Origin: Amphiscolops sp. MND2022 | Taxonomy: Eukaryota | Assembly: GCA_964187785.1 (NCBI GenBank) | Contig: OZ076409.1 | Location: 24,492,001-24,556,000 of the forward strand | Direction of reading: 5' to 3' | Length of the DNA stretch: 64,000 nt | Shown: in pieces, positions 1 through 22,967 of the stretch | How the letters are laid out: each line of letters opens with the position of its first letter | Numbering within the stretch: the first letter of the stretch is position 1 | Made by a program: the position numbers and the translations under genes | The notes under the pieces: model-generated | The model's input: the letters and a program-made list of their open reading frames with translations, nothing else | What the model was told of the DNA's origin: nothing | Database searches by the model: none

Positions 1-1066
1 CCTCAGTCTTTAAATGATACAGTTGGATCCCACGCAGATCAAACAACGTCAACATTGACAAACAAAACCCTTTGACCCAGTTAATCAAATTGCACAAGCA
101 ATCGAGAAACCGGCCAATAAAAACCCCCAACAATCACTTTTTCACCCGAAAAACACATTGACATTCAATGGAAAAAACGAGAAATTCGAATACTTTGAAG
201 ACCTGTTTCATACAACACTTCGCATGCAGCCGAATCTAACAGAGGAAATGAAAATTAACCACTTTTATGCACACCTCAGAGGTTTGGCATTAAAAACATT
301 CAAAAACATACAAAGAACGCCATCTACCACACTGGAAGACATTCTAAAAGTCTTTCGCAGAAAATACGTGAAACCAGAATCCAGTGCCTCAGCAAAGCAC
401 CGATTCAATAGACTTTTCTTTGACCCCGAAAACCAAAAACTACCGGATTTCCTTGAAGAACTCCAAGAAAGTGCTGAAAAAGCTTTCGGAGATAACGCAC
501 ACCAGATGATAGAGAACCTACTCTATGCAAAGATGCCCCCTCACCTTAAAAAAATCCATCAACCAAGCATATCTCGAGAACGGCACATACGACCAGATCG
601 TTAAACATCTCGAGAGGGAGATGGAGCTAAATGGTTTGGAAGCAGACGAAACCTCGGTCAAGACCCAAATGACCGTCACCAAAAAAGAACAAAATGCTGA
701 AAAACCAACTAAAAAACAAAATGAGAAGTCTAAAGCTCAGACTCCAAAAACAGTACCTAACAAAACACTTAAAAATGACCAATGCCGGTACTGCAAGGAG
801 ACGGGTCATATGATGGCTGACTGCCCCAATCTATTAAAACGGCGTAAACTTGAAGAGGACCCGGATGCAGAAAAATGCCAAAACTGCAATACACCAGGTC
901 ATGAGGAAGACAACTGCTACTTCGGCGCCAACATGGATAACCGACCACCAAAGTGGAACCTCACAGAAGCCCAAAAGAAGGTTATCGAAGCGCACAAACA
1001 AGCTAGAAACCTATAAAACCAAAAATAGATTGACCTCAACAATCCTCTTCCAAGGATTTAAACTAA
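1..1066 (+). pseudogene. gag: Gypsy gag (capsid plus two CCHC zinc knuckles), frameshifted
   Basis: ORFs 158-604 and 525-1016; knuckles CRYCKETGHMMADC and CQNCNTPGHEEDNC; probable original C-terminus ...QQSSSKDLN* with TAA at 1064-1066. Confidence 0.9.
1057..1066 (+). promoter_or_regulatory. Putative -1 ribosomal frameshift slippery site (T TTA AAC) at the gag/pol junction
   Basis: GAT TTA AAC TAA ends the gag frame; the -1 frame continues FKLKTSRLSK (ORF 850-1152). Confidence 0.7.
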
Positions 1067-4000
1067 AAACGTCACGCCTTAGCAAACAAAACGCCCAAAT
1101 AACAACTACAAAACCACAAGGGTCAAGTGGATACAATAAACATACAACTTAAACAACTGAATACAGAACCAGACTACACACCTCAAACACACAATCAACC
1201 CGAAAACGATGAACCCCCACAAGAATCATACTATGAACTCATGAAAGATGCTCCCGACAAGTATTTTTCAGACAATACTCAAACCTCCCCTGTACCTACA
1301 GACAATTGACCAGAAATTCATCACCCGAGTACTTTCTCTTGCAATGAACAAAAACAACCCCTTTTAGATGAAGATATCACAAACCACGTCCAGCTTGACC
1401 AGGAACGCAACCTGTCAAACCTACCTATGTCAACCTCGCTAACATTGAAACGAAAACGTCACATGTACTACATGCCAATGGACTTCGAAAAACTCACACT
1501 TGACGGACTCATTGACACAGGAGCCCTGACTAGTGCAATCTCCGAACAAGACCTTAACAAAACCAAATTAATTGCAAATGAAGCAATAAAAGATACTGGC
1601 CTACCGCCAAATTTCCAAATTATGGTGGCCAATGGTCAACTAGAGGTACCAATCGGCACAGTACTACCCACTCATTGGTCTCTGCTTCCTTCGAAGAAAC
1701 AATGCAGTTTTTGATGTCACACAAGGCATCCTAACTTTTCCATACCTCTCAATGCAATTAAAACCAGACACACAAGTAACTATGCGTCAAGCAACACCAT
1801 TGTTTGCTAAAAATACATACACCCTCCAACCAGGCGAAACCCTCGCCATAGCAAGCAGAATGCCCCACCTGTTAGACCACGATGCAACAGGAATAGTCAC
1901 ACCTTCACCACAATTCGAAAGCCACGACAGCATTTTCATCACATCGTCACTTAGTACGGTCAACAATAATGCTATCGGGTACCAAGTAATCAACTCTTCA
2001 GAACTTCCATAAACAATAGTTTGTGACACCCATCTAGCAGACTTTAAAAACCTCACACCAGAAATAATCAAACATATACAACCTATAGATCCAGCGATGT
2101 TGTCATTCATGATACAACATGAGGAAACAACCGAGATCTACATAAATGAACTGCTGAAAGTTCCTTCACAAAACCCCGAACAAGAATCTTATTGGTTCCC
2201 AACACCAGAAGAACCAGGGGATCCTACAACGTATACCCCAGTCCAACAACGAATAACTCGAGCTCAAAGAACTTGAACAACTCAACCCACAAGACAATGC
2301 AAAATCAAGAAAAGCTTTTCTCTCGAATATAGACTGGACTGACACAACGTTCAGCCAAGAAGAACAGAAACAAATTGAAGAAATCCTCATTGAGTTTCAT
2401 GATATTTTTGCCAGATACCGATTCGACATTGGCACCAATCGTGAATTCAAGGTTAAACTCACACCAAACGATGATCGACCAGCCTACAGCCAAAGTTTGC
2501 CAACACCAATCAACCTCAAAGATGACATTACCGTAGAACTAGCACTTCTACACAAATATGGAATCATAAAAACCCTACCTTTTTCAAAATACGCTAGTCC
2601 AATCTTTGCACAACGCAAACCAAACGAACGCCTCAGACTACTTGTGGATCTCAGAAAAATCAACAATTTAATCACTGAAGACTACATCAACAATACCCAC
2701 CCGGTAAGCACACTGTCGGATGCAGCACAACATTTGGCAGGCAAGAAACTTTTCTGCAAATTAGACTGCTCCCAAACTTACCACTGCCTTCAAATGGCAG
2801 ACTACCAATCTATTCAGATGCTTGCTTTCAACTTTGCAAGCCGAACCTTTGCTTATCGTCGACTTGCTCAAGGCCTTAGCAGATCTCTCTAGGCGTTTTC
2901 TAGCTTCATGAGGGAGTACCTTGACAAGGCGATCAAGGTTGACCAATGTGCACAGTACGTCGATGACATTGGTATAGCAGCAAATGACTTAAAACAGTTA
3001 TGCGCCAATATCAGGACGGTCTTTGAATGCATCCGAAATGCTGGTCTAAAACTTACAATGTCCAAATGTCATTTCGGAGTCAAGCAAGTAGACTTTCTAG
3101 GCCGCACAATCACACCTGTTGGCGTGGCCCCTCAAGCTGACAAGTCAAAGATTTCCTGGCGAAATTGAGATTCCCCGAATCCAAAAAAGCACTCCAAAGG
3201 TACATAGGATTTCCTAAACTATTACCGCAATTACATCCCGAGACTCTCTGAACGTCTCTCTCCATTTTTCAAACTCCTCAAAGAAACCTCCAAATTCTAT
3301 GTACCCACGAACTTGGTGGAAGACTTCACCAACCTAAACAAACTTCTCGAAAATTCTTGCCAATTAGCTTTGAGACAACCTCTCAAAGACAAACAACTCA
3401 TAGTCATGTCTGATGCAAGCTTTACAGCAGCAGGATATGCTATCATGCTAGAAGTCGATCCCAGCCAAAAACTCCAGTCAAAACGCAAAACATATGAACC
3501 TATAGCATTTGGTTCGAAAACCTTCAACCCAACACAAACCAAATTGTCGATCTATGCAAAAGAATTCCTTTCCATATACTTTGCTTTTGTTGAATTCGGT
3601 CACCTCATGTGGGGAAGCACTTTCCCAGTCATAGTGTTCACCGACAACAGATCTGTAACCCGCTTTTTTCAAGCAAAACTCATTCCTCCAAAACTTTGGA
3701 ACGCATGCGATTATGTCCTACAATACAATTTTGTCATTGCCCATGTTGCTGGTTCAATGAATACGGCGGCGGATTTCCTATCCAGAATGGAAGTCAACCC
3801 AGTTGAAAAACTTGAAATGAGCATAAGAAACGATATCCAAACCAAAACGATAGAAGTCAATATACAATCTTCTGGTATTGTGGAAGAAGAACAAATCTAC
3901 ATCCTCCGCGACGATGAATTTGATGAAAACAAACTTTGGGAAGAAAAACAAAACGTGAGAAATCAAGCTCAAACTGAAACTCACAATGATCCAGAAAACA

Positions 4001-5750
4001 ATGTTACTGAACTTCAACAGTTCCACAAACCGACATCAGGCTTAAACACATGCTCTGAAGGGCATTTTCGAGACAATGCCAGAATCAGACTCGAACAAAA
4101 CAATGACATTGTCCTTAGGAACCTCAGAGCTAAAATAGAAGGAAACCCCTTTGATGAAAACGACTTGGCATCTGATTACAGATATCAGCATTACCTCCAA
4201 AACATAACCAGAATCGAAATCAAGCAAGAGATTCTAACGAGAAGGTACTACACAGACACAGGAACCACTTCGCACTATCAGATTTTGTTACCAAAACAAC
4301 TCCTAGAAGAACTACTTCAAGCCTTACACGGTCACAACTCAAACCATCCGGGTATCACAAAGATGATACAAGAAGTAAGGCAGAAATACTACTACCCTTG
4401 TATTGCAAAATACATTAAAAAATGGGTGAGTAATTGCCAAACCTGCATACAAACCAAAAGGATCAATAATGACCTCCTCAGGACCGAACTACTTAATTGC
4501 CCAGAATGGGATCTCGGCCCAGAATTGCCCAGAATGGGATCTCGGCCATTCTTCAAATGGACATTCTACCAAACCTACCACCCAGCGCTGGATATGACCA
4601 TATAATAACAGCGATCGATGTTTTCTCTCGATACCTGTTTGCATATCCAGTGACCCGCATCACTGCAACATCAGTAGCCAGAGTGATAATGGACATAGTA
4701 TGCAAACATACATACCTTCCAACAACAATCATCACAGATCTTGGCACACAATTCAATGCTCAAGTAACCCATGAAGTTACAGCCGTCCTAGGCGTTGAGC
4801 TAAAACACGCAACAATGAAACACGCCCAAACAATAGGACTTCTGGAAAGAACCCATGCTTCAGTCAAAACCCAACTCAAAGCAGCAACTGGAGAATTCCG
4901 ACATATTTGGCATAAGTTTCTCCCGTTAGCAGTACTAAACCACAACACAACCTATCATGCATCGCTTGGTTGCGAGCCTTCACGAGTTTTTCATGGCCGC
5001 ATCCCTCACAACATACTGGATTACAAGTTAGGATACAATCCTAATCCGAAATATCAACCCCAAACTGACGTTGCAGAAGAAATACAACGACGAATGAGAA
5101 TACTTTTAGACCAAACCAAAAAAACATAATGCAATCCTATCTCAAATACAAAGCCTATTACGATAGGAAAGCAAAAGCATCACCGTTAGAAACAACCGAC
5201 TACTGCTACATTTTAAACCCGAAAGCTGACACACAAGCAACAAAAATACCGTTTCGGGAATTCAGATGGCAGGGTCCTTACAAAGTCGAAAAAGTCCTTC
5301 CTAATAACAATTATATAGTTAGGAGACTGGGAACAAATGAAACACAACTTTTACATAGAATCAGGTTGAGAAAATTCACACCGCAAGCACAGTTAGCCGA
5401 TATTTTTGTACCCAATTACTGATGACATTGAATATGTACCAGTTGAAGTACCTGAAAATAATCACCCTCCTTCCCCCGAATTTCCAAAATATAGTGGGGG
5501 GAGCCCAGTGGAACAGACCACTGAACGCAAAGAAGAAAACTGTGATGAAAATCTACAAAAAATTCAAGATGAAGAATCAGAAATATCCCAAAAAACCCCA
5601 AAAGAAAATACACCAGAAGCCCAAACCCAAAAAACCCCAGAAAAGTCAGAAAATACCCCATTGCAAGAACAACCCATAAATACTCGTGGTGAAAAATATA
5701 ACTTACGACCTAAACCCAACCCAAACTTTTCTGACTCTTATAGATACTAG
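1057..5750 (+). pseudogene. pol: Gypsy pol: aspartic protease, reverse transcriptase, RNase H, integrase; many frameshifts and stops
   Basis: LIDTGA (protease, ORF 1427-1714); YASPIF..RLLVDLRKIN and QYVDDI (RT, 2497-3168); MSDAS..SIYAKE..FTDNR (RNase H); HGHNSNHPG...CQTC zinc finger; LQMD/TDLG/LLER DDE core; WQGPYKV (GPY/F); terminal KYNLRPKP. Confidence 0.95.
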
Positions 5751-6015
5751 AAAAACAGATTGAAGGTGATCATTCTTCTGTTGGTCTATACTCGCCGACT
5801 ATGCTTCTTTTCGTTCAATTCAGATCGTTGATAAACACAAAACATTCGTCCCAATAATACAGTGGATGGATAAATAAATACAACGATGAAAAACTATATA
5901 ACGCGAAACAAGAGAACTCAAAAAGAAACTAGAAGAAATGTTTCTCAGTCTTTCTCCCCTTTAGTCCCTTTAGACTTGGCTTTCTGGTTAGCGGAATTGT
6001 CACCTGCACAACTAG

Positions 6016-9000
6016 TCAGAGAGAGAGAGTAGCTTTTCCCAAAACTGAGCGAGGCGATGGAGAACTGTTACTAGTAGTGGAACCACTGCCACAAGTGATA
6101 TCTCCGTCATCTGGTAGCTTCTTATTATCAGGAGCCACAACTGAACGCTTGTATGCACTTTCAAACTTGGTGCAAAGAGTTGACCTTTTTGCTCCATTAC
6201 CCCTCAAAAAATTCCATGTGGAAAGTTCACGGTCCTCCAGAATCTCCTTCCCTCTTCCTAGTAGTCGAAAGACTCTTGAAATGGTGCGGGGATCCTGGTA
6301 CAAGCTGGAGACTTTGGGCACTGTAGAGTATGAAAGCTGTATAGCCCCTATACAAGATCGGAATGATTCCTCATCAGTACCCAACTCGGGTATCGGGGTT
6401 ACCAAGGCTGCTGGGATCTGTACCAACGGGGGAAGACACAAACTAGATAGCTTGAATAACTTATGTAACTCAGGCCGGCATTGCAATTCGTAATGAGAGA
6501 CGAGGAATTGAAACCAATCCTCAACTTGTCTCATGTTGACAGTCCGGAATTTTGACACAATAGATCGATACTGGCTGACCGACTTTGTTTTCTCACTGAG
6601 GTTCAACCACCCAATCTGCACGAAATGACCAGTGAGACACTCAACGGCGGCAACATACTGGTCCTCGGATCCATGTAACTTAACTCCAGAGTCGACACAT
6701 GCAAGCCCTCGAATTAGATCGGATTTAATAATTTCGTGGGACAGCAATCTCCCACAGAATGCCTTGCAGATTGAAATAGTTTGTTCAACGAAATTACCAG
6801 GCCTAGGAAGTTTGATTGTACTGACGAGATTGTGGTATTCGGAATTCAGAATGAACTCATCTGGAGACTTGAAGGGAAGATTGGGTTGACTCAGGTCGAC
6901 ACTCAAATACTTCTCCCAATCGGAAATGCTACCAAGGAAACTGTCGGGTAAAATGTTTTGTAATTGACTATATACAAAATTGGCGTACTGATTATACAAT
7001 CGAAATCCGGCACCAAATTGATCACAGACCTCAGTGAAGGCTGAGTTATCTGAAACACATGAGAAGGTCGGTCAAAAGTCTCCAATAAATGAAACAATCC
7101 TTCACCATCCTACGCTTTTACTTGAATGATTATACATAACTATGCGGATTCCAGCCGGTGACTACGCGTCACTATGCGGATTTCAGCAAATGATTATACA
7201 CAACTATGCGGATTCCAGCAAATGATTACACACAACTATGCGGATTACAGCTGGAGACTATGTGATCACTGTGCGGATTTGAGCAAACGATCATACGCCA
7301 CTATACGTCTTTCGATTATTGCACAAGCTGCACTACGGGGTATTTACAATTAATAAAAGCACGTGCCTACTCTAGAGTGTAGTCATTCATCATTATGCGA
7401 GTTTCTGAAAACGAGTATGAGTCATCATTCGGTTTTGGTCTACAATCATGCGTTACTATGCGGAATTTACAATGGTGAATATACGACACCATACTGAATC
7501 CTGGAATCAATTACAATCCTACAAGGTGAAAAGAAATGTATGCTGAAGAAAAATCCAAGGTTTTGGGAAATCAACCTAGAGAAAATAATTGCAAGCACTT
7601 CTAATTAAAAGAAAACAGAAGTTTTAATACAAAGAGCGAAATAGAAAAACAACTTTAGTCTCTGCACTAACAGTGATCGAGGACACATCTGATGATAAAT
7701 AGCCGTGCCAAATAAGTGGTATCAAGACGAAAACACTCGTCGAGGGTACTGGGCTGGAAACATAAAGAATGTATTAGATGAATAGATGCTTGCACAATGC
7801 GGATTATGGGAGGTAGATACTGAACTCTCTCATATGAAACCGATAGGACGGCAATCGGGACACACGATTAAGGTGGTCCAAGACTTTATCCCAGTGGCAG
7901 GATAACAGTTCAATCAAGATGGATGCTTCCCGAGGAGAATAGGAGAGATCCAAGACGCACTGAAATACAAAAAGAATCGAGCCTCAAAAGAAACATGTAG
8001 TCTATTTTAAAAGAGTACTTAATAATGAAAATAGTTCAAGTACCTTGTGTAAGGTTGGGAGAGACTGTAGCCAATCCCGGTCCAAGGCTGTGCGGAGTTT
8101 CATTAGAAGGAAGTCAAGGATCGTACGGTAATCGTGCCTTTCCAAAATTCTTGAAGTAGGGAGAGCAAGACATCTCTCCAGCTCATTTTGTCCAAAACCA
8201 TTGACGGAAGTAACTCGATATTTTCCGGGCAGAGAAGTTTTGAGACTGGAATTTAGCCTGTCAGGACAATTAACAAGGCTGACGCATGAAATGGAAGATT
8301 CGAAGAGACTAAGAAATGATGCGATGAAGTTGATAATCCTCTTGGGAATAAAGGTTCCTCTCGGTCCGGTGCCGAAGCAAATTTGGTAAAAGACATTACC
8401 AGGCCAAAAGTTGACGAAAACATGAGTGGTAAACTGGTTACTCTGGAAAGAAAGGGAGTAAGACCCGGAGGTTGTAATGGACGTGACCCCATAACTCAAC
8501 AATTCGCGGTACATGAAGACAAGTATAGCCTGCGAACATAATACTATTTACACCAGGAATATGTACTATAGTGAAAAAACAAAAATATAGAAATTACTCA
8601 CAAATAACCGTTGTCGTTCCCAACTGAAGGAGGAAGCTTGAGAGTTTCCAGGGAATAAGCGAACTGTCTCATTCCACATCCCAATAAGACTGTCAATGTG
8701 CCCACCATGACGTAACCCATGCTCTAGAATACGGATCTGAGAAATGACGTCTTCGCTTGGGCTGGACGTAGTGGTAAAATCCGGTAATTTGTCCTGCCCA
8801 ACCATCAATCTACAAACATCTAACTGGGGGGCGATAGGGTAGGTCTCTTTTGCTGTTCGTCTGGCGGCCAATAGAGTGTTCCCTGTCAGCTCTTTTTCAA
8901 ACTTGTCGTAGAGGGGAAATCCTGGAATTTCAAGTCTAATGCGATGTTCTTTGACGAGATGGGAGTCGGTTTTGAAATGTGATAAAAACTCAAGAACACC

Positions 9001-9955
9001 CCTACTCATTAATGACAGCTCCACTCGGCACACACGACACCACCATTTATAGGGAGTCTTGTTCCGATCAATTGGCCCGGTGGCAAAATATTTCAAAACA
9101 GGATGCTTACGCAGCATGTGGACTCTCAACGAGTACTTTGGCCGTTGTCGCTTTGTCCTGACATTAAGGGCTTCATCGCAACTAGATAAAGTGTCGACAT
9201 TCTCTTGACAGAGTCCCGTATCCATAGGATCGATGTTTTGAACGACACCTTTATCCGGAGATTGGGGGGATCTTCAATCACCTTCAGTGTAATGTTATCT
9301 GACTCGTCCACCTCAGTCTGACTGATCAGCTCCTGCGGAATTCTGCCTAATACACTTGAAAGGGTGAAGGCTTCTTGCCGTGTGATAACTAGTTCTTGTG
9401 GTGTCGCAGTAGAGGGTCCTGATGTTTCCACTTTGAGATTTGGAGCCTCATTCTGTTCAGGCTCACCTGAATGTTCGGGGGATTTTCCCCAGAAACCACC
9501 TCGGGGCGCTCAGTTGGATCGGAAGCATCTTCGGAGCGTAAGAGAAATGCAGTAAATCGGGGTGAATTGGATTGAGAGACGGGTGGCGTAACGGTGTTTT
9601 CCGGATTACCCATTATTTTTGGATCACTAAAACTCATCAATGAAAGATCCGGTAACGCCGGAGAGATCTCAATTACTGACGGTTCAGCCTCTTCATTATC
9701 CGCTCTATCGGAATTTTCGAGATCGTGGATAACGAGTTGACCGGGTGAAAAGGAGGTGTCGAGTTCGTCAGCTAACACTTGTTCAATCCCGTCGTTAGTC
9801 TTTGGTGGCGTACTATTGGAGGGTTGAACCAGTGAGGATGGTCCAGCAACAGGGAGTTCAGCTACCTGAAGGGGAATATAGGTCCTGGTTGGGGACCAGG
9901 CAGGCGACTTTAGCGATGATCCAAGTTCAACTAAAACAAGTGGGTTTTTTATCAA
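6016..9955 (-). pseudogene. Antisense spliced gene: BED-type zinc finger, hAT-transposase-like protein, with frameshifts
   Basis: Consecutive minus-strand ORFs 9389-9955, 9126-9431, 8566-9225, 8002-8514, 6903-7097, 6016-6999; WWCRVCRVELSLMSRGVLEFLSHFKTDSH finger; C-terminal W...PELHKLFKLSSLCLP resembles the hAT dimerisation region; frame-preserving GT-AG introns 8530-8601 and 7960-8043. Confidence 0.6.
7128..7300 (+). repeat. Tandem array, ~32-nt unit (GATTAYRCAYAACTATGCGGATTYCAGC...)
   Basis: About 5 diverged units with ACTATGCGGATT core; degenerate copies continue to ~7490. Confidence 0.85.
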
Positions 9956-10704
9956 GATGAACCACGAATCAAACCACGATCAATAATTTCCGCTAAATAA
10001 TAGACTTAAACCGGACGCGGTGGAAGGAAATTAAAGTGGGCGGAAGTGATTGATATCAAACCAAAAGCTTAGCTGCTTCAAAAATTCAAACATGATCTGA
10101 AGAAGATCGACTTTATTGAATAGTCTGGCCAACTATTTAATTAAAACTCTTTTCTGATCAGATAATCCAAATCAAAATTCGAATTTCTGAAACAAACTAT
10201 GAAGTGAACTTACGTGGAATAATCGCAGTAGGTGACTTGTAACCCCAAGAAGTGAGCTGTTGCCGCGGAGTTTGTTGTTGTCTTGACTTCCTCCGGTCGA
10301 GAGAATCCATGGTATCGCTAATCCGGCTGATAATCTCAGAGAATACAAATGGAGAATTAGAAATGAAACTTTAATGATGTGAAACGAAAGAAGAGTAGAT
10401 CGATGACCGAAGGAAAGAATGAAACTTTCTATCTGAAACTAAAAAGACTGCAACTGAAATTAATACATACTAGAAACACAAAAGACTGCAATTATGTACG
10501 AAATTAACAAGTTGACGTTGAAATTCAATAGAAGCCGTGGCGTTAAACGAAAGGCAAAAAGCAAATGAATGCTGAAATTTGCGCATTAATCCAGAAAATA
10601 CTCTAATCTGATTGGTCAATTAATTACCGTCCATTACTGCCAGAATGGACGATTACGTAATTATCAAAATTAGCAACCGGTCAACGATGCAAATCTCATG
10701 AATG

Positions 10705-10945
10705 GCCACCATGCGGCATGGAGAGGAATTTCACCACTGCCTGTGCGGCAGTATGCGAAAACGACTTTATCAATAAAGCGACAGTATGCGGAACTTTGCA
10801 ACTGCATATGCGTCAGAATACTGAAAGCCGCCACTACACATGCGGCAGTATGCGGAAATCCACAACTGCATATGCGGTAGTACACGGAAAATCACCACTA
10901 CACATACGGCAGCATGCGGATAATTGCAACAGCATGTGCGGCATT
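10705..10945 (+). repeat. Tandem array, ~31-32-nt unit with CATATGCGGCAGTATGCGGAA core
   Basis: Repeated ATGCGG motifs at regular spacing. Confidence 0.8.
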
Positions 10946-11752
10946 GTACAGATAACCAATCACGCGCTGAAAGCTATGTCTGCATGTTTTAAAGGACATA
11001 CACGATCTAACTCCAATTTCTTACGATGTTGTGATGTTCAGTAGTTAACACTAGCTACAGAATATGCGAGAATGATGATCTATTAACAGAATACGTTTTT
11101 ATGCATGCCAGCTCAGGCAAACCGAAAGAAAATGAAAGATAAACTAGACTTGATGCGCTTTTACCTTTTGAGATATAACGCATTTTTCAAGTGCGGGACT
11201 CGAAACAAAACTTTGATGAACTATGGGTAAATGTGATATTTCACAAAATTTAAAATTTCAGTCCTGAAAAACTTCATTCATAAATGTAAACCTCAGTCAT
11301 GTAAAACTAGATATGTATATCAATTTTCACTTAATTTCTCCATCAATGGAAATTATTAGTCATGAAATCCTTTGAAGTTAGTTTAGTTATGATTTTGTTT
11401 ATATCTCATTGAAATGGTTCAACACTGTCAAGCGTCTTGGGTGAAGATGAGATTCTCCCTGAAAGCTGAAGAAACACCTAAAATGGAAGATGTTTATATC
11501 GAATTAAAATGAAACTTGATAATTTTCGCGGATTCAACAAGTTCTATCACAGAAATGACCCTATAAGGAAAACGAAGAACCCCGAAATCATGACACCCAG
11601 TTATTCCGCGGGGTTTTGTTACAAGCGAGAGAAACGGAAAAGACAATCACCATATGGTCTTTTGACTCGTCCAAAAGCAGTAACTCCAACTAAAACGAAA
11701 ACTACCTTTAAACCTTACTTGAGGAAATCATCCTGCAACATAAGAAGAGAAC

Positions 11753-12811
11753 ATGAACAACCTGCAATTTACCCTTGAAGATAGCCCTTTGCTCTCAATT
11801 CAATCTCCTGGGATTGTAGATATATCAAGCGATTCAGGAGAAGAAATTGTCGTTCATCCGAATGATCTGTCCGACGTGGAGGAAAGATTCAGGGTTGGTG
11901 GACCAAGATCGGATATGTTGACGGCATTCGTGGGTGCAACTTCGGCAACCCTTTTCACATCCGGACCAGAAGACTCCTCAATTGTTGAGACAATTGACAC
12001 TGCTGGGACACAAATTGAGCGGCAGATGATGGAAATCATCGAGGAGCATCAATTCAGTAGAGGGTCTTCATCAACTTCATTCATTGATACGGAGCTGGAA
12101 GACTCACCCATGTCGCCATGGGAGTCGGCTCAACCTTCGACACGACCTGTAAACAGCTACGGGAGGCCAGCTGCGGCAATCCTCCTTACACCAAGAAGCA
12201 ACAACCACGAGACGACAGTGATCAATAGACCCATTCCTACTTACCCGCCTAATTTTGCAAATACTTACCCAATTTATCAACCCCAACAAATCACTGACCC
12301 TAGACATCAGCAAGCAGATCACCCTCTCAACGGTATCCAGCCAAGGACATTGGGCAACAGTGGAGCCTTCTCCGCTAACCCTAATGGTTTGCCTATATAT
12401 AATAATGCACCAATAATGATCCAGATACCTCCCCATGAAGGAAGCGCCAATGCTTCACAATTGAATACTGGACCTAATGCTGGACCCTCCCCTCACTTCC
12501 CGTTCCAAGCGGGACATAGTACAAATATACTGCTCTTGCCCTTTCAAGAAAGACTGCAATATCGACTTTTGCCCCCAGTAATGACAAACGTCGCTGGATT
12601 TTGCGATTGGTGTGGTAAATGCTACGATTTGATAGCACTCGAGACACTGGGAGAGTACCTTATTGCAACCGTTTACGACGGGGAGACGGTCAGGGACAGA
12701 GGTGTCAGGTCCCGTGCCTTTATAGATGGGTTCGAGGCTGCACTGTTCTCCTTTGAAGGTGCGGGACTGTCGCAGCCTCATGGGTGCTTTGGGTCTGTTC
12801 TGCAAGAGTAA
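11753..12811 (+). CDS. Intact 352-aa ORF of unknown function: acidic/Ser/Pro-rich N-terminus, C-terminal CDWCGKC motif and predicted helical domain
   Basis: Uninterrupted ATG-TAA ORF with coding-like composition inside the putative retroelement 3' region; no family recognised. Confidence 0.6.
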   Translation: MNNLQFTLEDSPLLSIQSPGIVDISSDSGEEIVVHPNDLSDVEERFRVGGPRSDMLTAFVGATSATLFTSGPEDSSIVETIDTAGTQIERQMMEIIEEHQFSRGSSSTSFIDTELEDSPMSPWESAQPSTRPVNSYGRPAAAILLTPRSNNHETTVINRPIPTYPPNFANTYPIYQPQQITDPRHQQADHPLNGIQPRTLGNSGAFSANPNGLPIYNNAPIMIQIPPHEGSANASQLNTGPNAGPSPHFPFQAGHSTNILLLPFQERLQYRLLPPVMTNVAGFCDWCGKCYDLIALETLGEYLIATVYDGETVRDRGVRSRAFIDGFEAALFSFEGAGLSQPHGCFGSVLQE

Positions 12812-13127
12812 AAAGGAAAACGAAGAAGCAGCCTGAAAGACAAACTCAATTTGATGAAACTCAATAAACTGCCTCCCCCCTTTTTATTTCTTTGCTTTTA
12901 TTGTCTCGTTGTTTACCCTAATCAATGAGTTAAGTCAGGTAAATACTCATTTTATAGTTTCTTTGGTTGAATTGTGGAAGCCAGATGCGAATTAAGACAT
13001 GTTGACCAGGCTTTCCTAACTTTTCACCCTAGTTTTTGCTTGAAATATTGAGTTGTTTAGTTGAATTTAGGCAATAACTTCTGAATGGAAGCAATGATTA
13101 TTCTAAACGTGACCTTTTAAATCAATG

Positions 13128-13460
13128 AGTATGCGTCACAGTACGAAAATGTGAAAATGAATACACTTCTTTATGCTGTTTGTGATTAATAATTATGCAC
13201 CATTATGCGGAAAATTTCTGACGCATATACTGCAATATGCGGATTTTAACCACCGCTTATGCGGCACCATGCGGAAAACAGTAAATTCCTTGATACGTTG
13301 TCACGGTGATATTTGCACGTCACTATGCGGAAAATCGCCGGCGCTTATGCGTCAATATGCGGTTTCCCGCGTTTTCCATCATACGGTGCTTTACTATTAT
13401 TATATTGTGATTATTCGTTGATATGCGGAAATTTGAGACCGTATATACGTCATTGTGCAG
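13128..13460 (+). repeat. Tandem array of TATGCGG-containing ~31-32-nt units
   Basis: Repeated ATGCGTCA/TATGCGGAAA motifs related to the arrays at 7128 and 10705. Confidence 0.75.
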
Positions 13461-13601
13461 TTTTCCAGGGTTTTTGTCGTAGCTGTACAAAACTTGTTTC
13501 TGCTTGTCATGCAATGTATAATTAGAGTTATAAATAGAATTACGACACATGATGTAATTCTTTTTATAGAATATGAAGACCATGACACCCATAAAAACGG
13601 G

Positions 13602-14456
13602 TGTAATCCCCACCATTTTTTCCTTGTGCTCAGGACCTTAGACCCCAATTATTCTTTGGAATAACTCTCGTTGAAAACAGTTGATAAAACCCACACTCCA
13701 AACCACTGTAAAAGCAGTTTCTCATAACCAACAGTTGTCTCATTTTCCAATTTGCTTTGTTGAAATTCTCAGCTCAATTCAAATTCTTCCCCAGCAAACC
13801 CAACACGTTTTTCACTTGAAAACAATGGGAAATAAGAGAAACAGTTTTTTTGTAGCTCAAGTCCTTGTTTGGTAGAAGCTAATCAACCGCGTTCTGTAGA
13901 CTTTAGATGATCTTGAGATCGCTTTTGGACGGCACCATAGGTAAAAGGTCACTTGGTTTATTGCATTTGGTCACTTGGCCTCAATTTCAAAGCCAGGCGT
14001 CTTGGTGAATGGTCACTTAGCTTCAAACCATTTAGCTGAAAACAACTATTCATCCCTATTCATATGTTCACATACTCTAGTGCTCTGAATGCAAAGGTAG
14101 AGCGATAGCGAGGCCTCAATGTTGCTACTTGGCGAAGAGTGCGAAGCGACCGAGACATACAACAAACATGCTATCCTCATCATATATATTCAAACGTTCC
14201 TTTCTTGAACATTTCGCTAAAATTCATTTCAGTCTTTAAAAAGTCGTTTTTAGGCATTGCTTTAGTCAGAATGGACTTGGCTTAATTTTATGGCCATTTG
14301 GCCTTAAAATATTAGGCCAGATGACACGAGAAAAAACTTAAGCCAAATGACTTCCAGCCCAGTGACTTTTAACCTTCCATAGGGTAGGACCATAGCCTCT
14401 GTTTGGAATAATGTAGCTGAGTTCAGCGTTTTCAGAGAAAAGGCACGGCTCTTACA
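13602..14456 (+). repeat. Candidate 3' LTR (interrupted by a MITE)
   Basis: Begins TGTAA after purine-rich ATAAAAACGGG and ends TTACA (5-bp terminal inverted repeat); partner LTR is outside the window. Confidence 0.45.
13942..14376. mobile_element. MITE with GGTCACTTGG / CCAAATGAC arms and shared core B
   Basis: Imperfect inverted ends; CCATAGG direct repeat at 13935-13941 and 14377-14383; diverged core CATATGTTCACATACTCTAGTGC...GCGAAGCGACCGAG at ~14061-14166. Confidence 0.6.
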
Positions 14457-15034
14457 GTGGCTGGTTGTATCTCCAGTAGCTGTGATCCATCCACTCTTTC
14501 AGAGAACAGATGGAGAGCTGATTCTACAGATCGGATGATGATATCTAGAGATGGCAAGGTACCGGTACGGTCCAAAGGCGGTACTGGTACATACCGGTAC
14601 ATGAACCGGTACTTATGTTTAAAGATAAGACAAAACAGTCATTGTTTCACAATAACGTTTTATTCCAGGTCAGAATCATAATCATGACTCAAGTAATCAT
14701 TACCGTCTTTTGGATCAAGCATTATGTAGTTGGTATAAATGAATACAAGCTTTCAAACGTTTTCATTCAGGAGTCTGTACGCCTCTATGAACTGTTACTA
14801 GGCCTATGACCAATTGGGTAGTCAGTCAACGTATAAATTGATGTTATCATAAATGACGACGCAATAACTATTACATGTGGTAACTACACTGGTACGTGGG
14901 CACTAACTGCGATCTAGATCAAAAGATCGAATCGCACTCCTTTAACTTAGATAAAAATGTCACTTTTCGTAACTAAGGTCTAGAGAATGCCAGCTCCCGA
15001 ATCGTAACCAACTGTGAAGTGATAAAAAGTATAA

Positions 15035-15246
15035 AACGTGCCGCGGATATGTCCCCATTTCCTCTAGTGCCCCGCGTCCCCTTTTGGCTGGTTACGTTCC
15101 CATTTTGCTAAGCGAGGCCGAGCAAGAGCAAAGATCTAGCGGGAAAGGAGGTCGCGAAGCAATCGTAGTGAGAGCTGGGCTTTGTGACGGTGAGGGAGAT
15201 CGTGCATCCACAGCATATGCCCTACATTACGACACTTTGCTTTCAG
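15035..15246 (+). repeat. Dispersed repeat core A (GGATATGTCCCCATTTCCTCTAGTGCCCCGCG...)
   Basis: Homologous to 18110-18325 (-), 21915-22130 (+) and 22615-22830 (+). Confidence 0.85.
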
Positions 15247-17930: not shown

Positions 17931-18491
17931 GAGTGTACGCCTTTGATCTAATTCATTAGGTCTAATGGAATTAGATCTAACTTTCAGATCTAATTTAGGT
18001 CTAACTTTAGGTCTAATTTTCAGATCTAATTCAGGTCTAACTTTAGGTCTAACTTTCAGATCTAATTTTATCTAAAATACTTAGTCAAACCCCTTTATGA
18101 TCTAATATGTGTTCTGAAAGCGAAAACATAATGTGGGGCATGTGCGATGTATGCACGCTCGCCCTCACCGTCGCAAAGACCAGCTCCCGCTACGATCGCT
18201 TCGCGATCCCCGTTCCCACTAGGTCTTTGCTCCTGTTCGACCTCGCTTAGCAAGATGGGAAAATAGGCGGCCCCAAGTGGCCGCGGGGCACTAGAGGAAA
18301 TGGGGACATATCCGAGGCACGTTTATACTTCATGTCACTTTTTAGTTTTAGATCCTCATTGACTTATTGTTTTTCTCAAATTAGATCAAATTAGAATAGA
18401 TTTTTAGACCTGATTATTTAGATCAATTTTTTATATCTCAGTTTTGCTTCCTGTCTTAGATCTCTTTCATTAGACCTGCTTCCACGCATCT
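17931..18491. mobile_element. MITE (MULE-like) with AGRTCTAA / TTAGAYCT arms, core A, 9-bp TSD
   Basis: CCTGCTAGG at 17922-17930 and 18492-18500; arms built from short repeats in opposite orientation. Confidence 0.8.
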
Positions 18492-18833: not shown

Positions 18834-21250
18834 TTTTTTTTATAGCTGCTTTGATATAAAATTCAAAAAAATTAGGCTATATGTAATAAATTTCTTCGAA
18901 CGCATCTCTGTCGCTCACAGTTCATAGAACACAGGCCGCATTGCCGATCTGAAGAGCCATTGAAATCCGTTGCTTCAAAAAGCAGCCAGCTCGTTGATCG
19001 TCGTGCGAACGACAGAGCATTTTACAGAGACGCGTGATGAACTTTTCACTGCTCTCGCCTAAAGAACCCTGTATTTCCAAGGCCACTGGCTGAAAAATGT
19101 ATCCATTGTCTATTAATTCGCGATACGTCTCAATTTTACGCGCTTCAGCCTCGGTGGCGGTGGTTCCCCGGTTGCATAAAGAGCCTTGATTCAGGCGACT
19201 GGGTGCAAGAGCATACACAACCGTGACATCCCACACCAGCTGTTTACCCATTTCCCAAGGAATCATGGTAACACCGTCTGGGCGTTTGCCATCAGTTCGG
19301 TACAGTCCACGCGGTTCGAGCATTGAAGGCAAGTCGAGAGATCCCAACGTCTGCTTTATGCGGGAATTGAGAGTAGCATGACGTGAGAAGCGACCAGCAC
19401 TCTTAGTGCAAGAAAGGACGTGTAAACCGTCCCGTTCAACTCTTTTACCACAGTGGCACGTATGCGCAACGCAGATGTTGGCACCGAAACGCAAACCAAT
19501 TGAAATTCGAAGTTGCTGATCACCAAGTTTCAGGCCTAGGTTCTTGCAAGGAACGACGTTCAGCCATTGAGACCCGAATTTGCCTTGATGAGCGTTGAAA
19601 ACTCTCGAACGTTTGTCATCCATTCTAGAAATCAAATCTTGGGCGGTTTTGACGTAGACAGGTTGTGTCCAACTTTTCTGAGTTCCATCGACAGGACTTT
19701 CCTGTTCATTCGTCAAACTCAACCACTTCTCAAGCGCTTTTGTAAACGAAACATCTTCGAATGTTTCCGAGAAAATCATCGTGAGAAAGTCACTCGCACC
19801 AAAAGCTGAGGCCAAAAAGGCGGGAAGTGCTAATAATGATGCGGATGAAACCCCAAGACCACCCATCTCAGCAGGCAGAGCCAGCTGAGTACTCGAAATA
19901 TCGTCGAAGTTCACGTTACACACTTTGGAAAGTCCGTCGCGCACTTTTTGGAAAGTTTTTGGAAAGATGCTAAAACTGTCGATCGTCGTTTATCAGTGAT
20001 GTCACCAGGGAAAAAAATTTCACATTTCGTGTGTTTAATTTTGAGTCCCAACATTCTTTCCGCTTCAACAATTTTTTTGAGATCTTCCAAAACGGTTCGG
20101 TAATCATCACTTAAATTTTCATCGTCAAGGTACCATAAGTTTATTTTCGACTCCAAACTGTCAATCAGATCCTGAATGGAATCCGAAAACAAAGCTGGAG
20201 ACTCAGGATGACCTTGCTGGGTCCCTTCACAAGATTTGATTACTGAATCACCGTAGAAAAGAAAACTTGGCTGACTGTACGCAGAGTTTGAATACTTATA
20301 AACTTCAGGGTGTATTTCAAAAACTTTCTCTAGCATGAATTGCCGGTTTATCGAATTGAAAGCGTTTTCAAAGTCAATTTTCAAAATTACGTTTTCTTTG
20401 GGCTGAGAGCTTTCTATCAAACAACGGAAAACATGTGAGGCCAATTCAGCGCCCCTTTTGGAACCTACACCTACTTGTCGATTTCCATATCTTGTTTGAC
20501 GTGATTCGAAGACATGGTATCCGGCACATTTTGCGGACAATCGGCGGAAAGTATTGCCTACATCGAAGTCTTCCATCGGGCTTTTTTAGCGCAATTAGTT
20601 TCGCACCAAAGAAGTACGGCCGAAGTTCGAAAGGTACTTTTCCTTCAAGAATCACATTCACAAGATTTGCCTACTGCCATTCTGATTCCGGCCTTAACAT
20701 TACCTTCGTCTAATTTAGTGCAAATGGAACGCAGTCGTCGATCTAACTCGCTTTTCTGCTGCGGTTTTCTGTCGCGTTTCGGTTTTTTCTCACTGACACC
20801 ATCCCGAATACGCTTGTTGATAATTGCACTAAGTGATGACCTCTGACGTTTACCTCCTCGAGGTGGTTTTTCCAAAAAATAGCTTAGAGAGGAGAGCAGT
20901 AAGCACCACAAGGCAATATTTGACAGGGTTTCACAAATATCATTAATTTTTGGTATCAAATTTTCAGCTAGGGGGATCCGTGAACTTTTAGGAACTCTTT
21001 TCAAGTGAACAACGCCTGAATTAAAATGGGTGTCTGGTCTAAAGTTATCATCCTGACACTGAGGGATTGTGTTCACTAAAGAACACCTACTACATTTAAA
21101 TTCGGCAAGATTCCGGGCTTCCGTTCTTGATAAATTGGCGCATTTTATGTGAACCCATCCGTTGCAAAGCCTACAATTTATCCAGTCTATCAACCCTGAG
21201 GGCTTCAGACACTTCGGAGCGTTGCAGGTTTCGTTGTTTTTCATCACAAC
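18834..21250 (-). mobile_element. Non-LTR retrotransposon, CRE-like clade (PHD finger - RT - zinc knuckle - restriction-like endonuclease), decayed
   Basis: PHD CNAPKC...WINCRLCNGWVHIKC...FKCSRC; RT LKIDFENAFN, GTQQG, WYLDD; CHC...HVLSC; RPDG...WDVTV endonuclease; reading ends ...FEEIYYI* (TAG 18877-18879) with a short 3' UTR and A-tail at 18834-18841. Confidence 0.85.
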
Positions 21251-21623: not shown

Positions 21624-22967
21624 GGGGTACAAGACATATTGCTTAATTCCATATTGCCTAATGCCATATTGCTTAATGCCATATTGCTTAATTTTGTGGG
21701 GTACAAGACATATTGCTTAATTCCTTATTGCTTAATGCCATATTGTTTAATTTTGTGGACATATTGCTTAATAATTTTTAAGCAATATGGATAATGCCAT
21801 ATTGCTTAAGTTTGTGGACTTATTGCTTAATAATTTTTAAGCAATATGGATGTGTTTTCACATTGAGTATTGAGTGATGAATCGAGTAATGCGTCGGATC
21901 TAAGTGACACTTATAACACGTGCCTCGGATATGTCCCCATTTCCTCTAGTGGCCCGCGGCCCCTTGGGGCCGCTTATATTCCCATCTTGCTAAGCGAGGT
22001 CGAACAGGAGCAAAGACCTAGCGGGAACGGAGATCGCGAAGCGATCGTAGTGGGAGCTGGTCTTTGCGACGGTGAGGGCGAGCGTGCATACATCGCATAT
22101 GCCCCACATTATATTTTCGCTTTCAGAACACGTATTTGATCATAAAGGCGTTAGACCTAATTATTTTAGATGAAATTAGATCTGAAAGTTAGACCTACCG
22201 TTAAATCTAATTCCATACGACACATATCATACTCAGAACACATATTAGATCATAAGACCTATTAGATCATATTAGACCTAAGGTCCATATTGTACTGTAC
22301 TAGGTCCATATTGCTTAAAATGATGTCCATATTGCTTAAAATGATGTCCATATTGCTTAAATTGATGTCCATATTGCTTAAAAAATTTAAGCAATTCGTA
22401 CATGGTCGATTTTTAAGCAATATGGCATTAAGCAATATGACTTGAAGCCATTTTGTGGACATATTGCTGAATAATTTTTAAGCAATATGGATAATGCCAT
22501 ATTGCTTAATTTTGTGGACATATTGCTTAATAATTTTTAAGCAATATGGATGTGTTTTCACATTGAGTAATGAGTGATGAATCGAGTAATGCGTCGGATC
22601 TAAGTGACACTTATAACACGTGCCTCGGATATGTCCCCATTTCCTCTAGTGCCCGCGGCCCCTTGGTGCTGCTTATATTCTCATCTTGCTAAGCGAGGTC
22701 GAACAGGAGCAAAGACCTAGCGGGAACGGAGATCGCGAAGCGATCGTAGTGGGAGCTGGTCTTTGCGACGGTGAGGGCGAGCGTGCATACATCGCATATG
22801 CCCCACATTATATTTTCGCTTTCAGAACACATATTAGATCATAAAGGCGTTAGACCTAAGTATTTTAGATAAAATTAGATCTGAAAGTTAGACGAACCGT
22901 TTAATCTAATTCCATACGACACATATCATACTCAGAACACATATTAGATCATAAGACCTATTAGATC
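21624..22967. repeat. Foldback-like element with CCATATTGCTTAA arm repeats and core A, tandemly duplicated (~700-nt period), running into the gap
   Basis: GTGTTTTCACATTGAGTA at 21852 and 22552; many ATATTGCTTAA / TTAAGCAATAT motifs. Confidence 0.8.

Follow-up and report, generated by a model that had tools for sequence, protein, structure and literature searches.

The window analysed here is a 64-kb stretch of the genome of Amphiscolops sp. MND2022 (assembly GCA_964187785.1, contig OZ076409.1, positions 24,492,001–24,556,000), and all coordinates given below are those of the window. It opens within a Ty3/gypsy-type long terminal repeat (LTR) retrotransposon whose gag-pol lies on the plus strand. 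The element is assigned to this type by a pair of LTRs that enclose gag, protease, reverse transcriptase (RT), RNase H and integrase in that order; along gag-pol the Pfam matches run zf-CCHC, RVT_1, RT_RNaseH, Integrase_H2C2, rve and Integrase_p58_C, and in the window copy the frames are broken by stops and frame changes, as seen in the list of open reading frames (ORFs). Between the end of pol (~5750) and the 3' LTR are found a gene on the minus strand, a 1.4-kb spacer with a tandem array, and orf3, a third sense ORF. The minus-strand gene is the subject of this report. An initial annotation of the sequence had proposed an intron-containing gene antisense to gag-pol at this place, with a zinc finger and a relationship to the transposases of hAT DNA transposons, and comparison among copies bears out that the intron-bearing antisense gene is real.

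The antisense gene and its host element

The window was compared with 10 full-length copies of the element and then with 40 gene-region copies of the same genome, the copies being picked from 116 scored own-genome matches to the last exon among 5,769 first-look candidates. Conserved coding blocks and frames across these copies yield a gene model of six coding exons and five GT–AG introns, with positions and phases conserved across the 41 compared copies (Table 1). Over the nine splice positions that were placed, the canonical GT or AG is present at 334 of 340 copy-sites, whereas the background frequencies of these dinucleotides are 6.3% (GT) and 5.6% (AG), so that chance is excluded; a reading of the exons as chance ORFs was also considered and rejected. 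Exon 1 has its ATG and a donor GT in all 26 copies in which the end of the exon was placed. The acceptor of intron A was located by pattern search in 25 of these 26, a figure which is not an independent count since the pattern itself requires YAG. Exon 2 is a single open frame of 460–568 amino acids (aa) in 15 copies.

The model behaves as a spliceosomal gene would, in that the position and phase of the GT–AG introns are conserved while their sequence and length drift. Among copies, intron B ranges from 68 to 142 nucleotides (nt), intron C from 63 to 84 nt, intron D from 69 to 80 nt and intron E from 371 to 840 nt, and introns cannot be aligned between alternative versions of the coding block (cassettes) whose exons are ~66% identical. 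In a few copies—L036 and L037 for intron C, L045 and L050 for intron D—the intron length is a multiple of three with no in-frame stop; retention of such an intron would add only 22–23 residues.

Two of the introns had been placed exactly by the initial annotation, namely the 72-nt intron at 8601–8530 that joins ...QRLF to AILVFMYRE and the 84-nt intron at 8043–7960 that joins ...TLHK to CVLDLSY; both agree with the sequence and with the comparison of copies. For the repeat-containing intron it had the GTTAGT donor at 7671–7670 right and the acceptor wrong, as the intron does not end at 7110 but with TTTCAG at 7050, where AG is found in 38 of 40 copies. The interval from ~7820 to 7671, for which no structure had been offered, is accounted for by a phase-0 intron at 7824–7754 with a donor GT in 39 of 41 copies. 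Finally, the gene does not begin at 9955, where its 5' end had been drawn; it continues upstream across intron A, and its ATG lies at 10310.

Seven of the 41 copies can be spliced into one unbroken ORF of 1,074–1,096 aa with all ten splice dinucleotides canonical. In 24 copies at least one boundary, mostly that of exon 1, could not be placed by the window-derived probes, and the remaining ten are broken, the window copy included. The latter has four defects: two frame changes in exon 2 at ~9481 and ~9270, both at runs of C; a TT at the donor position of intron D, also found in L072 (2/41 copies); and an early stop at 6018–6016, which leaves exon 6 with 343 aa as against ~366.

The layout of gag-pol (+), antisense gene (−) and orf3 (+) between the LTRs is kept in 10 of 10 diverged full-length copies, whose last exons are 52–93% identical in aa. 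Every full-length copy examined (10/10) therefore contains the antisense gene, and in each it occupies the region between pol and the 3' LTR, the placement by which the antisense coding regions termed aORF-3R are recognised. LTR pairs measure 1445–1677 nt in intact copies and 2203 nt in copy c5a, in which they contain an internal duplication; their identity is 96.1–99.6% over all ten full-length copies and 98.3–99.6% in nine of them, elements with such similar LTRs being ~16.3 kb long. These copies keep all five introns, presumably because the sense genomic RNA cannot lose them; since introns persist in recent insertions, the gene must be read off the strand that opposes the genomic RNA. This is consistent with the earlier statement that antisense introns survive retrotransposition.

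The window element is older than the copies with 98.3–99.6% identical LTRs. Its 5' LTR lies upstream of the window, from about −1408 to −40, and an 894-nt repeat of 97.1% identity (−1408 to −518 against 12951–13844) is the part that its two LTRs share; compared with the LTRs of intact relatives, the 5' LTR of this copy must be missing its start and the 3' LTR its end. All ten full copies contain the sense frame orf3, at 35–94% aa identity, and no family in Pfam matched it. Its 3' end overlaps the LTR, the LTR starting at ~12768 and the ORF ending at 12811.

It might be argued that an autonomous hAT transposon simply jumped into one Gypsy copy. True hAT elements are indeed numerous in this genome, with 150 scored matches to PF05699, some of them within ORFs of 600–697 aa, but the antisense gene has no PF05699 match, contains five introns, has no conserved catalytic acids and sits at the same position in 10 of 10 full copies whose lineages are saturated at synonymous sites. 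Flanking terminal inverted repeats, named in the initial annotation as the mark of a nested hAT insertion, are also missing: no pair brackets 5750–10400, and 12 short pairs were found with all arms inside the gene or the spacer. As a recent event, a nested hAT is refuted by the shared position and the absence of bracketing inverted repeats, and the explanation as a whole has a negligible probability. That the gene is integral to the retroelement, as originally proposed, is upheld. A much older event, in which the family's ancestor took up a transposase gene, may have occurred and is included in the explanation preferred below.

Table 1. Features of the retroelement and its antisense gene in the window, in order of position
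Feature	Position	Strand	Basis
gag-pol of the host element (zinc knuckle, protease, RT, RNase H, integrase)	59..5750	+	ORF list, Pfam
Exon 6 (last), ~366 aa in other copies	5945..7049	-	alignment of copies
Intron E, 622 nt, phase 1	7050..7671	-	donor GT 41/41, acceptor AG 38/40
32-nt tandem array, TATGCGGA core, within intron E	7125..7283		
Exon 5, 27 codons + 1 nt	7672..7753	-	78–100% aa identity in 41 copies
Intron D, 71 nt, phase 0	7754..7824	-	donor GT 39/41, acceptor AG 39/40
Exon 4, 45 aa	7825..7959	-	58–100% aa identity in 41 copies
Intron C, 84 nt, GTACTT...TTTCAG, phase 0	7960..8043	-	donor GT 39/39, acceptor AG 38/38
Exon 3, 162 aa, predicted RNase H-like core	8044..8529	-	alignments, AlphaFold, Foldseek, VIA
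Intron B, 72 nt, GTGAGT...CGCAG, phase 0	8530..8601	-	donor GT 38/38, acceptor AG 36/37
Exon 2	8602..9930	-	alignment of copies; frame comparison
Zinc finger, C-x2-C-x16-H-x5-H-x4-H	8944..9039	-	C, C, H, H, H invariant 28/28
Intron A, 283 nt, GTAAGT...TTTTAG, phase 1	9931..10213	-	donor GT 26/26
Exon 1, ATG at 10310, 32 codons + 1 nt	10214..10310	-	coding conserved in diverged copies
32/64-nt tandem array, ATGCGGA cores, spacer between antisense gene 5' end and orf3	10778..10969	.	
orf3, third sense ORF of the element, 355 aa	11744..12811	+	ORF list; Pfam
3' LTR, ends prematurely at 13844	12768..13844	+	start placed by homology to copy c12

Selection on the gene and exchange of its coding block

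The ratio of nonsynonymous to synonymous substitution rates (dN/dS) among copies, a check proposed with the initial annotation, is available for 19 copies that are intact from the finger to the stop, giving 171 pairs. Its median is 0.11, with a range of 0.05–0.41, in the 9 of 171 pairs for which 0.05<dS<1.5; as these unsaturated pairs all belong to two groups of closely similar copies, they are not independent of one another. In a further 152 of the 171, synonymous sites are saturated and dN is 0.18–0.43, and the frames are still open. Together these comparisons of coding sequence indicate that the antisense gene is under purifying selection.

Two other explanations of an open antisense frame have to be considered at this point. 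In the first, a host cellular gene would have been transduced recently by one retroelement subfamily. LTR elements are able to capture host genes (PMC7264820), but the ten own-genome matches that were followed up, of 116 scored, all lie inside Gypsy copies, the cassettes are deeply diverged from one another (dN up to 0.43), and the databases searched contain no annotated full-length gene model, nor any other long one, and no named relative; this origin is very unlikely. In the second, the antisense RNA itself would be what matters, forming double-stranded RNA with the genomic RNA for silencing or self-regulation, and the ORFs would be incidental. Such a role would recall the regulatory antisense transcripts proposed for other retroelements (PMC7264820), but the low median dN/dS, frames that stay open across synonymously saturated lineages, conserved intron phases and invariant zinc ligands all stand against it, and we regard it as improbable in the extreme.

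The coding block itself is exchanged between otherwise near-identical elements. Copies c12 and c1 are 98.9% identical in nt across pol and 65.5% identical in the last exon; the corresponding values are 96.3% and 64.0% for the window against c1, and 96.7% and 66.9% for the window against c6. Followed along their length, c12 and c1 are 98.2% identical over a stretch that begins with the LTR and ends ~250 nt before the antisense stop codon; the value falls to ~67% across the exons and recovers to 90% beginning at a point ~70 nt within exon 2. The corresponding breakpoints in the window are ~5760–6020 and ~9860–10000. The exchanged block has one edge a little 3' of the stop codon and the other ~70 nt within exon 2, and the backbone keeps exon 1, intron A, the spacer and orf3. 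At least three cassette types are found on backbones that are 96–99% identical. Recombination between co-existing elements would be the simplest cause of such a swap, and the exchange may have occurred via template switching during reverse transcription.

The predicted protein and its resemblance to hAT transposases

Exon 2 encodes, in order, a poorly conserved N-terminal half, a basic cluster (KRRRPKY), the zinc finger and a conserved helical part. Within the cluster, K41, R42, R44, P45 and Y47 are near-invariant in an alignment of 28 copies. The finger is preceded by WW, and the invariance of its ligands in all 28 copies confirms the zinc finger recognised at the outset, now with the full pattern C-x2-C-x16-H-x5-H-x4-H. 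Some 140 residues lie between it and the first strand of exon 3. Conservation within the protein is highest in this finger (0.88) and in the block ERHD(F/Y)RTILDFLLMKLRTALD at the end of exon 3 (0.91).

Database searches returned relatives that carry single parts of the protein. A HMMER search over 1.84 billion representatives retrieved 282 relatives of the last exon, 176 of them with an expectation value (E) ≤1e-10; the best 150 of the 282 are all exon-sized ORFs of ≤420 aa, and no longer relative carrying the last exon was found in the database searches. With the finger part only unnamed ORFs of 414–718 aa were retrieved, and with exon 3 likewise only unnamed ORFs. The 718-aa finger-bearing ORF, P0297, is far longer than the others and may read through intron B into exon 3, in a copy whose intron B has no break in frame. 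A search of the ESM Atlas gave no usable match for exon 3; for the last exon it gave low-recognition clusters of viral RNA-dependent RNA polymerases, with 111–122 of 256 features shared, which were treated as chance.

The only positive lead to the nature of the protein comes from its predicted fold. An AlphaFold model of exon 3, built with a 150-sequence alignment, has a predicted local distance difference test (pLDDT) score of 73.6 and a predicted template-modelling score (pTM) of 0.57, and consists of a helix, strands b1-b2-b3, helix a1, strand b4, helix a2 and then further helices. This order of elements is RNase H-like, and the closest resemblance of the predicted core is to the catalytic core of the hAT transposase Hermes. 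In a Foldseek search with this model, Hermes (4d1q_G) is at rank 1 (E 0.013, probability 0.92, template-modelling score 0.30) and appears again at ranks 2, 6, 9, 10, 13 and 25. Most of the other matches are retroviral integrase cores, the Mos1 catalytic domain and RT RNase H domains; unrelated chains, namely Pelota (rank 3), sugar kinases and Argonaute, are also present. The VIA alignment of exon 3 spans Hermes residues 153–264, which is the catalytic core, and is the longest among the top rows.

The initial annotation had been unable to identify an intact DDE triad, and none is apparent from the copies either. No invariant or near-invariant acidic residue lies in b1 (23–30) or just after b4 (87–90), positions 87 and 90 of exon 3 being variable (N/D/G and D/E/G/A, respectively); if the domain is a transposase core it is therefore catalytically dead. 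The parts of the protein nevertheless follow one another as in hAT transposases, with a finger, ~140 aa of helices, an RNase H-like core and ~480 aa of helices, given the domain limits assumed for Hermes.

On this evidence we favour, with a probability of about 60%, the explanation that the window contains a decayed copy of an integral accessory gene, whose product is likely to be a dead, hAT-like zinc-finger helper that binds DNA. Descent of the protein from a hAT-like transposase is held to be slightly more likely than not.

A number of results weigh against this explanation. No Pfam family was matched by the window's own exons of the antisense gene, and at E ≤10 none was matched in 28 copies of the finger part, 31 of exon 3 or 37 of the last exon; the BED assignment of the initial annotation (PF02892, 0/28) and its hAT-like C-terminal motif (PF05699 and all other hAT families, 0/37) were thus not recovered. 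Among 17 distant database relatives, PF05699 and other hAT families had no match at E ≤1. Profile searches of PDB sequences with four alignments (A1–A4) returned no transposase. When compared by hhalign with 19 hAT proteins encoded in this genome, five of them full-length and 14 partial, the protein gave probabilities of 0.1–1.6%: 0.1% for a 168-sequence alignment of the last exon against the 19 proteins, and ≤1.6% for the finger region against hAT N-termini. The structural matches are also weak, nothing having reached E ≤1e-3 with exon 3 in Foldseek, and the catalytic positions were assigned by topology and alignment ranges. The model of the last exon, on which a structural recognition of the hAT-specific insertion and dimerisation domains would depend, is poor and all-helical, with a pLDDT of 52.4, and had no Foldseek match (best E 3.7).

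These negatives could also be those of a real accessory gene that encodes a lineage-specific zinc-finger protein not derived from a DNA transposase. The fold of exon 3 would then be a common RNase H-like or actin-like arrangement, or the model would be wrong. In line with this view are the uniformly negative outcomes of the sequence and profile comparisons with BED and hAT, the lack of any Foldseek match at E ≤1e-3 and the lack of a structural match for the last exon. Against it stand the first rank of Hermes, the seven Hermes rows in the first 25, the DDE transposase or integrase cores that make up most of the others, the VIA alignment lying exactly over the Hermes core, and a succession of domains—CCHH finger, helical linker, RNase H-like core, long helical tail—that matches the hAT architecture. 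We consider a protein without transposase ancestry possible, if rather doubtful. For the hAT descent put forward initially, the weak structural resemblance to Hermes speaks in favour, and Pfam, the PDB profiles and hhalign do not.

Further points against the accessory-gene explanation come from the subfamily of the window copy. The frame break in exon 2 at ~9270 recurs in c12 and c4, which of the copies examined are the two closest to that of the window. Constraint on the antisense gene is relaxed within the subfamily, its last exon having a dN/dS of ~0.6 (0.038/0.063 and 0.042/0.074), as compared with ~0.13 (0.019/0.141) for the still constrained pol of the window–c12 pair, and the LTR pairs of c12 and c4 are 99.3–99.4% identical despite their broken antisense gene. 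(L071 and L072 are listed alongside the window for the subfamily that shares the break.) From these values, the subfamily seems to have gone on moving until recently while its cassette decays. A gene that is broken in copies with young LTRs would therefore have a product that is either dispensable in cis or supplied in trans, which suggests that the accessory factor can act in trans; if it does, swapped or dead cassettes could persist for that reason.

Repeat arrays, proposed role and known systems

ATGCGGA cores with a period of ~32 nt are found at three sites of the element: in the LTR (13204–13429), in the spacer (10785–10856) and in the last intron (7141–7464). All 11 matches to TATGCGGA in the 64-kb window fall on the plus strand within the element; the mean number after shuffling is 1.04. 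Over ten 19-kb copies, ATGCGGA has 111 plus-strand and 6 minus-strand matches, and at least one match is present in the intron of 10/10 copies, the spacer of 8/10 and the LTR of 7/10. The arrays persist even in cassettes whose introns cannot be aligned. They could be candidate binding sites, or a signal in the genomic RNA, and the spacer array may be part of a divergent promoter region.

The proposed role of the dead, hAT-like helper can be set out as a series of steps. Transcription would start from an internal promoter in the 1.4-kb spacer, divergent with orf3, and the antisense transcript would be spliced. The protein would be imported into the nucleus via the conserved KRRRPKY cluster. There the invariant finger would bind DNA, for which the three ATGCGGA arrays (LTR, spacer and last intron) are possible sites, and the DNA-bound protein would regulate or tether the element. 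A more specific and decidedly tentative proposal, which we hold to be unlikely, is that an LTR lineage tamed a hAT transposase as a sequence-specific factor that reads the ATGCGGA arrays, the rest of the protein diversifying and being shuffled as a cassette. If this were true, such diversification and shuffling would be as expected in a conflict with host silencing.

Past the shortened 3' LTR, a 196-nt inverted repeat pair (15034–15229 and 18129–18324, 84% complementary) encloses 2.9 kb and may represent another mobile element inserted there. Related copies of the 196-nt repeat are found further downstream at 21912–22111 and 22612–22810. The minus strand from 18922 to 20585 contains two long open frames of 355 and 224 aa in the ORF list.

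To our knowledge, it is chiefly in plants that LTR retrotransposons with antisense extra ORFs have been described, and no function has been established for these ORFs. Open-access literature searches found no intron-containing, transposase-like antisense gene in an LTR retrotransposon, which is not proof of absence. The present system brings together, for a large multi-exon antisense gene, intact and broken copies, strong purifying selection and clear cassette exchange. It offers a first structural hint as to the nature of an antisense accessory protein, predicted to be a disabled transposase-like DNA binder, and its conserved introns are a natural marker of reading from the strand opposite to the genomic RNA. 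Two questions become testable with it, namely the role of antisense accessory genes for retroelements and the domestication of the enzyme of one class of mobile element by another.

The closest known systems are the aORF-3R of plant Ty3/gypsy elements: maize Grande gene23, rice RIRE2 and Silene Retand (TRP28 domain) (PMC7264820, PMC11963269). As portrayed in these two papers, they have in common with the present gene an antisense coding region between pol and the 3' LTR, presence in most copies of the family with an ancient origin, predicted DNA binding or nuclear location, and a long region from pol to the 3' LTR with tandem-repeat arrays; the Grande aORF has its own promoter, to which the internal promoter proposed here may be likened (PMC7264820, PMC11963269). 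The present gene differs in its five spliceosomal introns, the main texts of PMC7264820 and PMC11963269 never using the word "intron". It differs also in the size of its product, ~1,080 aa, which has no match to TRP28 (PF04195) or to any other Pfam family, and in the predicted RNase H-like core, the additional sense ORF downstream and the cassette swaps between backbones. Judged by its introns, the host genome is moreover not that of a plant.

With hAT transposases (Hermes: PDB 4D1Q, 8EDG, 8SJD, 6DWZ) the protein shares an N-terminal CCHH-type finger, a helical linker, a predicted RNase H-like core matching Hermes residues 153–264 and a long helical C-terminal region. Unlike them, it has no similarity by hidden Markov model or profile, no PF05699, no conserved acids at the predicted catalytic positions and no terminal inverted repeats, and its gene is the intron-bearing cargo of an LTR retrotransposon. 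Domesticated hAT transposases are known from hosts, the ZBED genes being an example. DAYSLEEPER (PMC3499209) is another domesticated hAT. The protein described here resembles them in being transposase-like and kept by selection, presumably for binding DNA and not for cutting it. DAYSLEEPER and the ZBED genes are single host genes, whereas the keeper here is a mobile element, with many copies and many diverged variants.

A final parallel is found in the human T-cell leukaemia virus (HTLV), in which the transcript of the antisense gene HBZ is spliced. HTLV has an antisense promoter in its 3' LTR (PMC7264820). Both genes would provide an accessory regulator, a role proposed in the present case, from the strand opposite to the genomic RNA; the HTLV product is a small bZIP protein expressed from the 3' LTR, whereas the antisense gene of the Amphiscolops element is a large multi-exon gene with an internal upstream region of its own.

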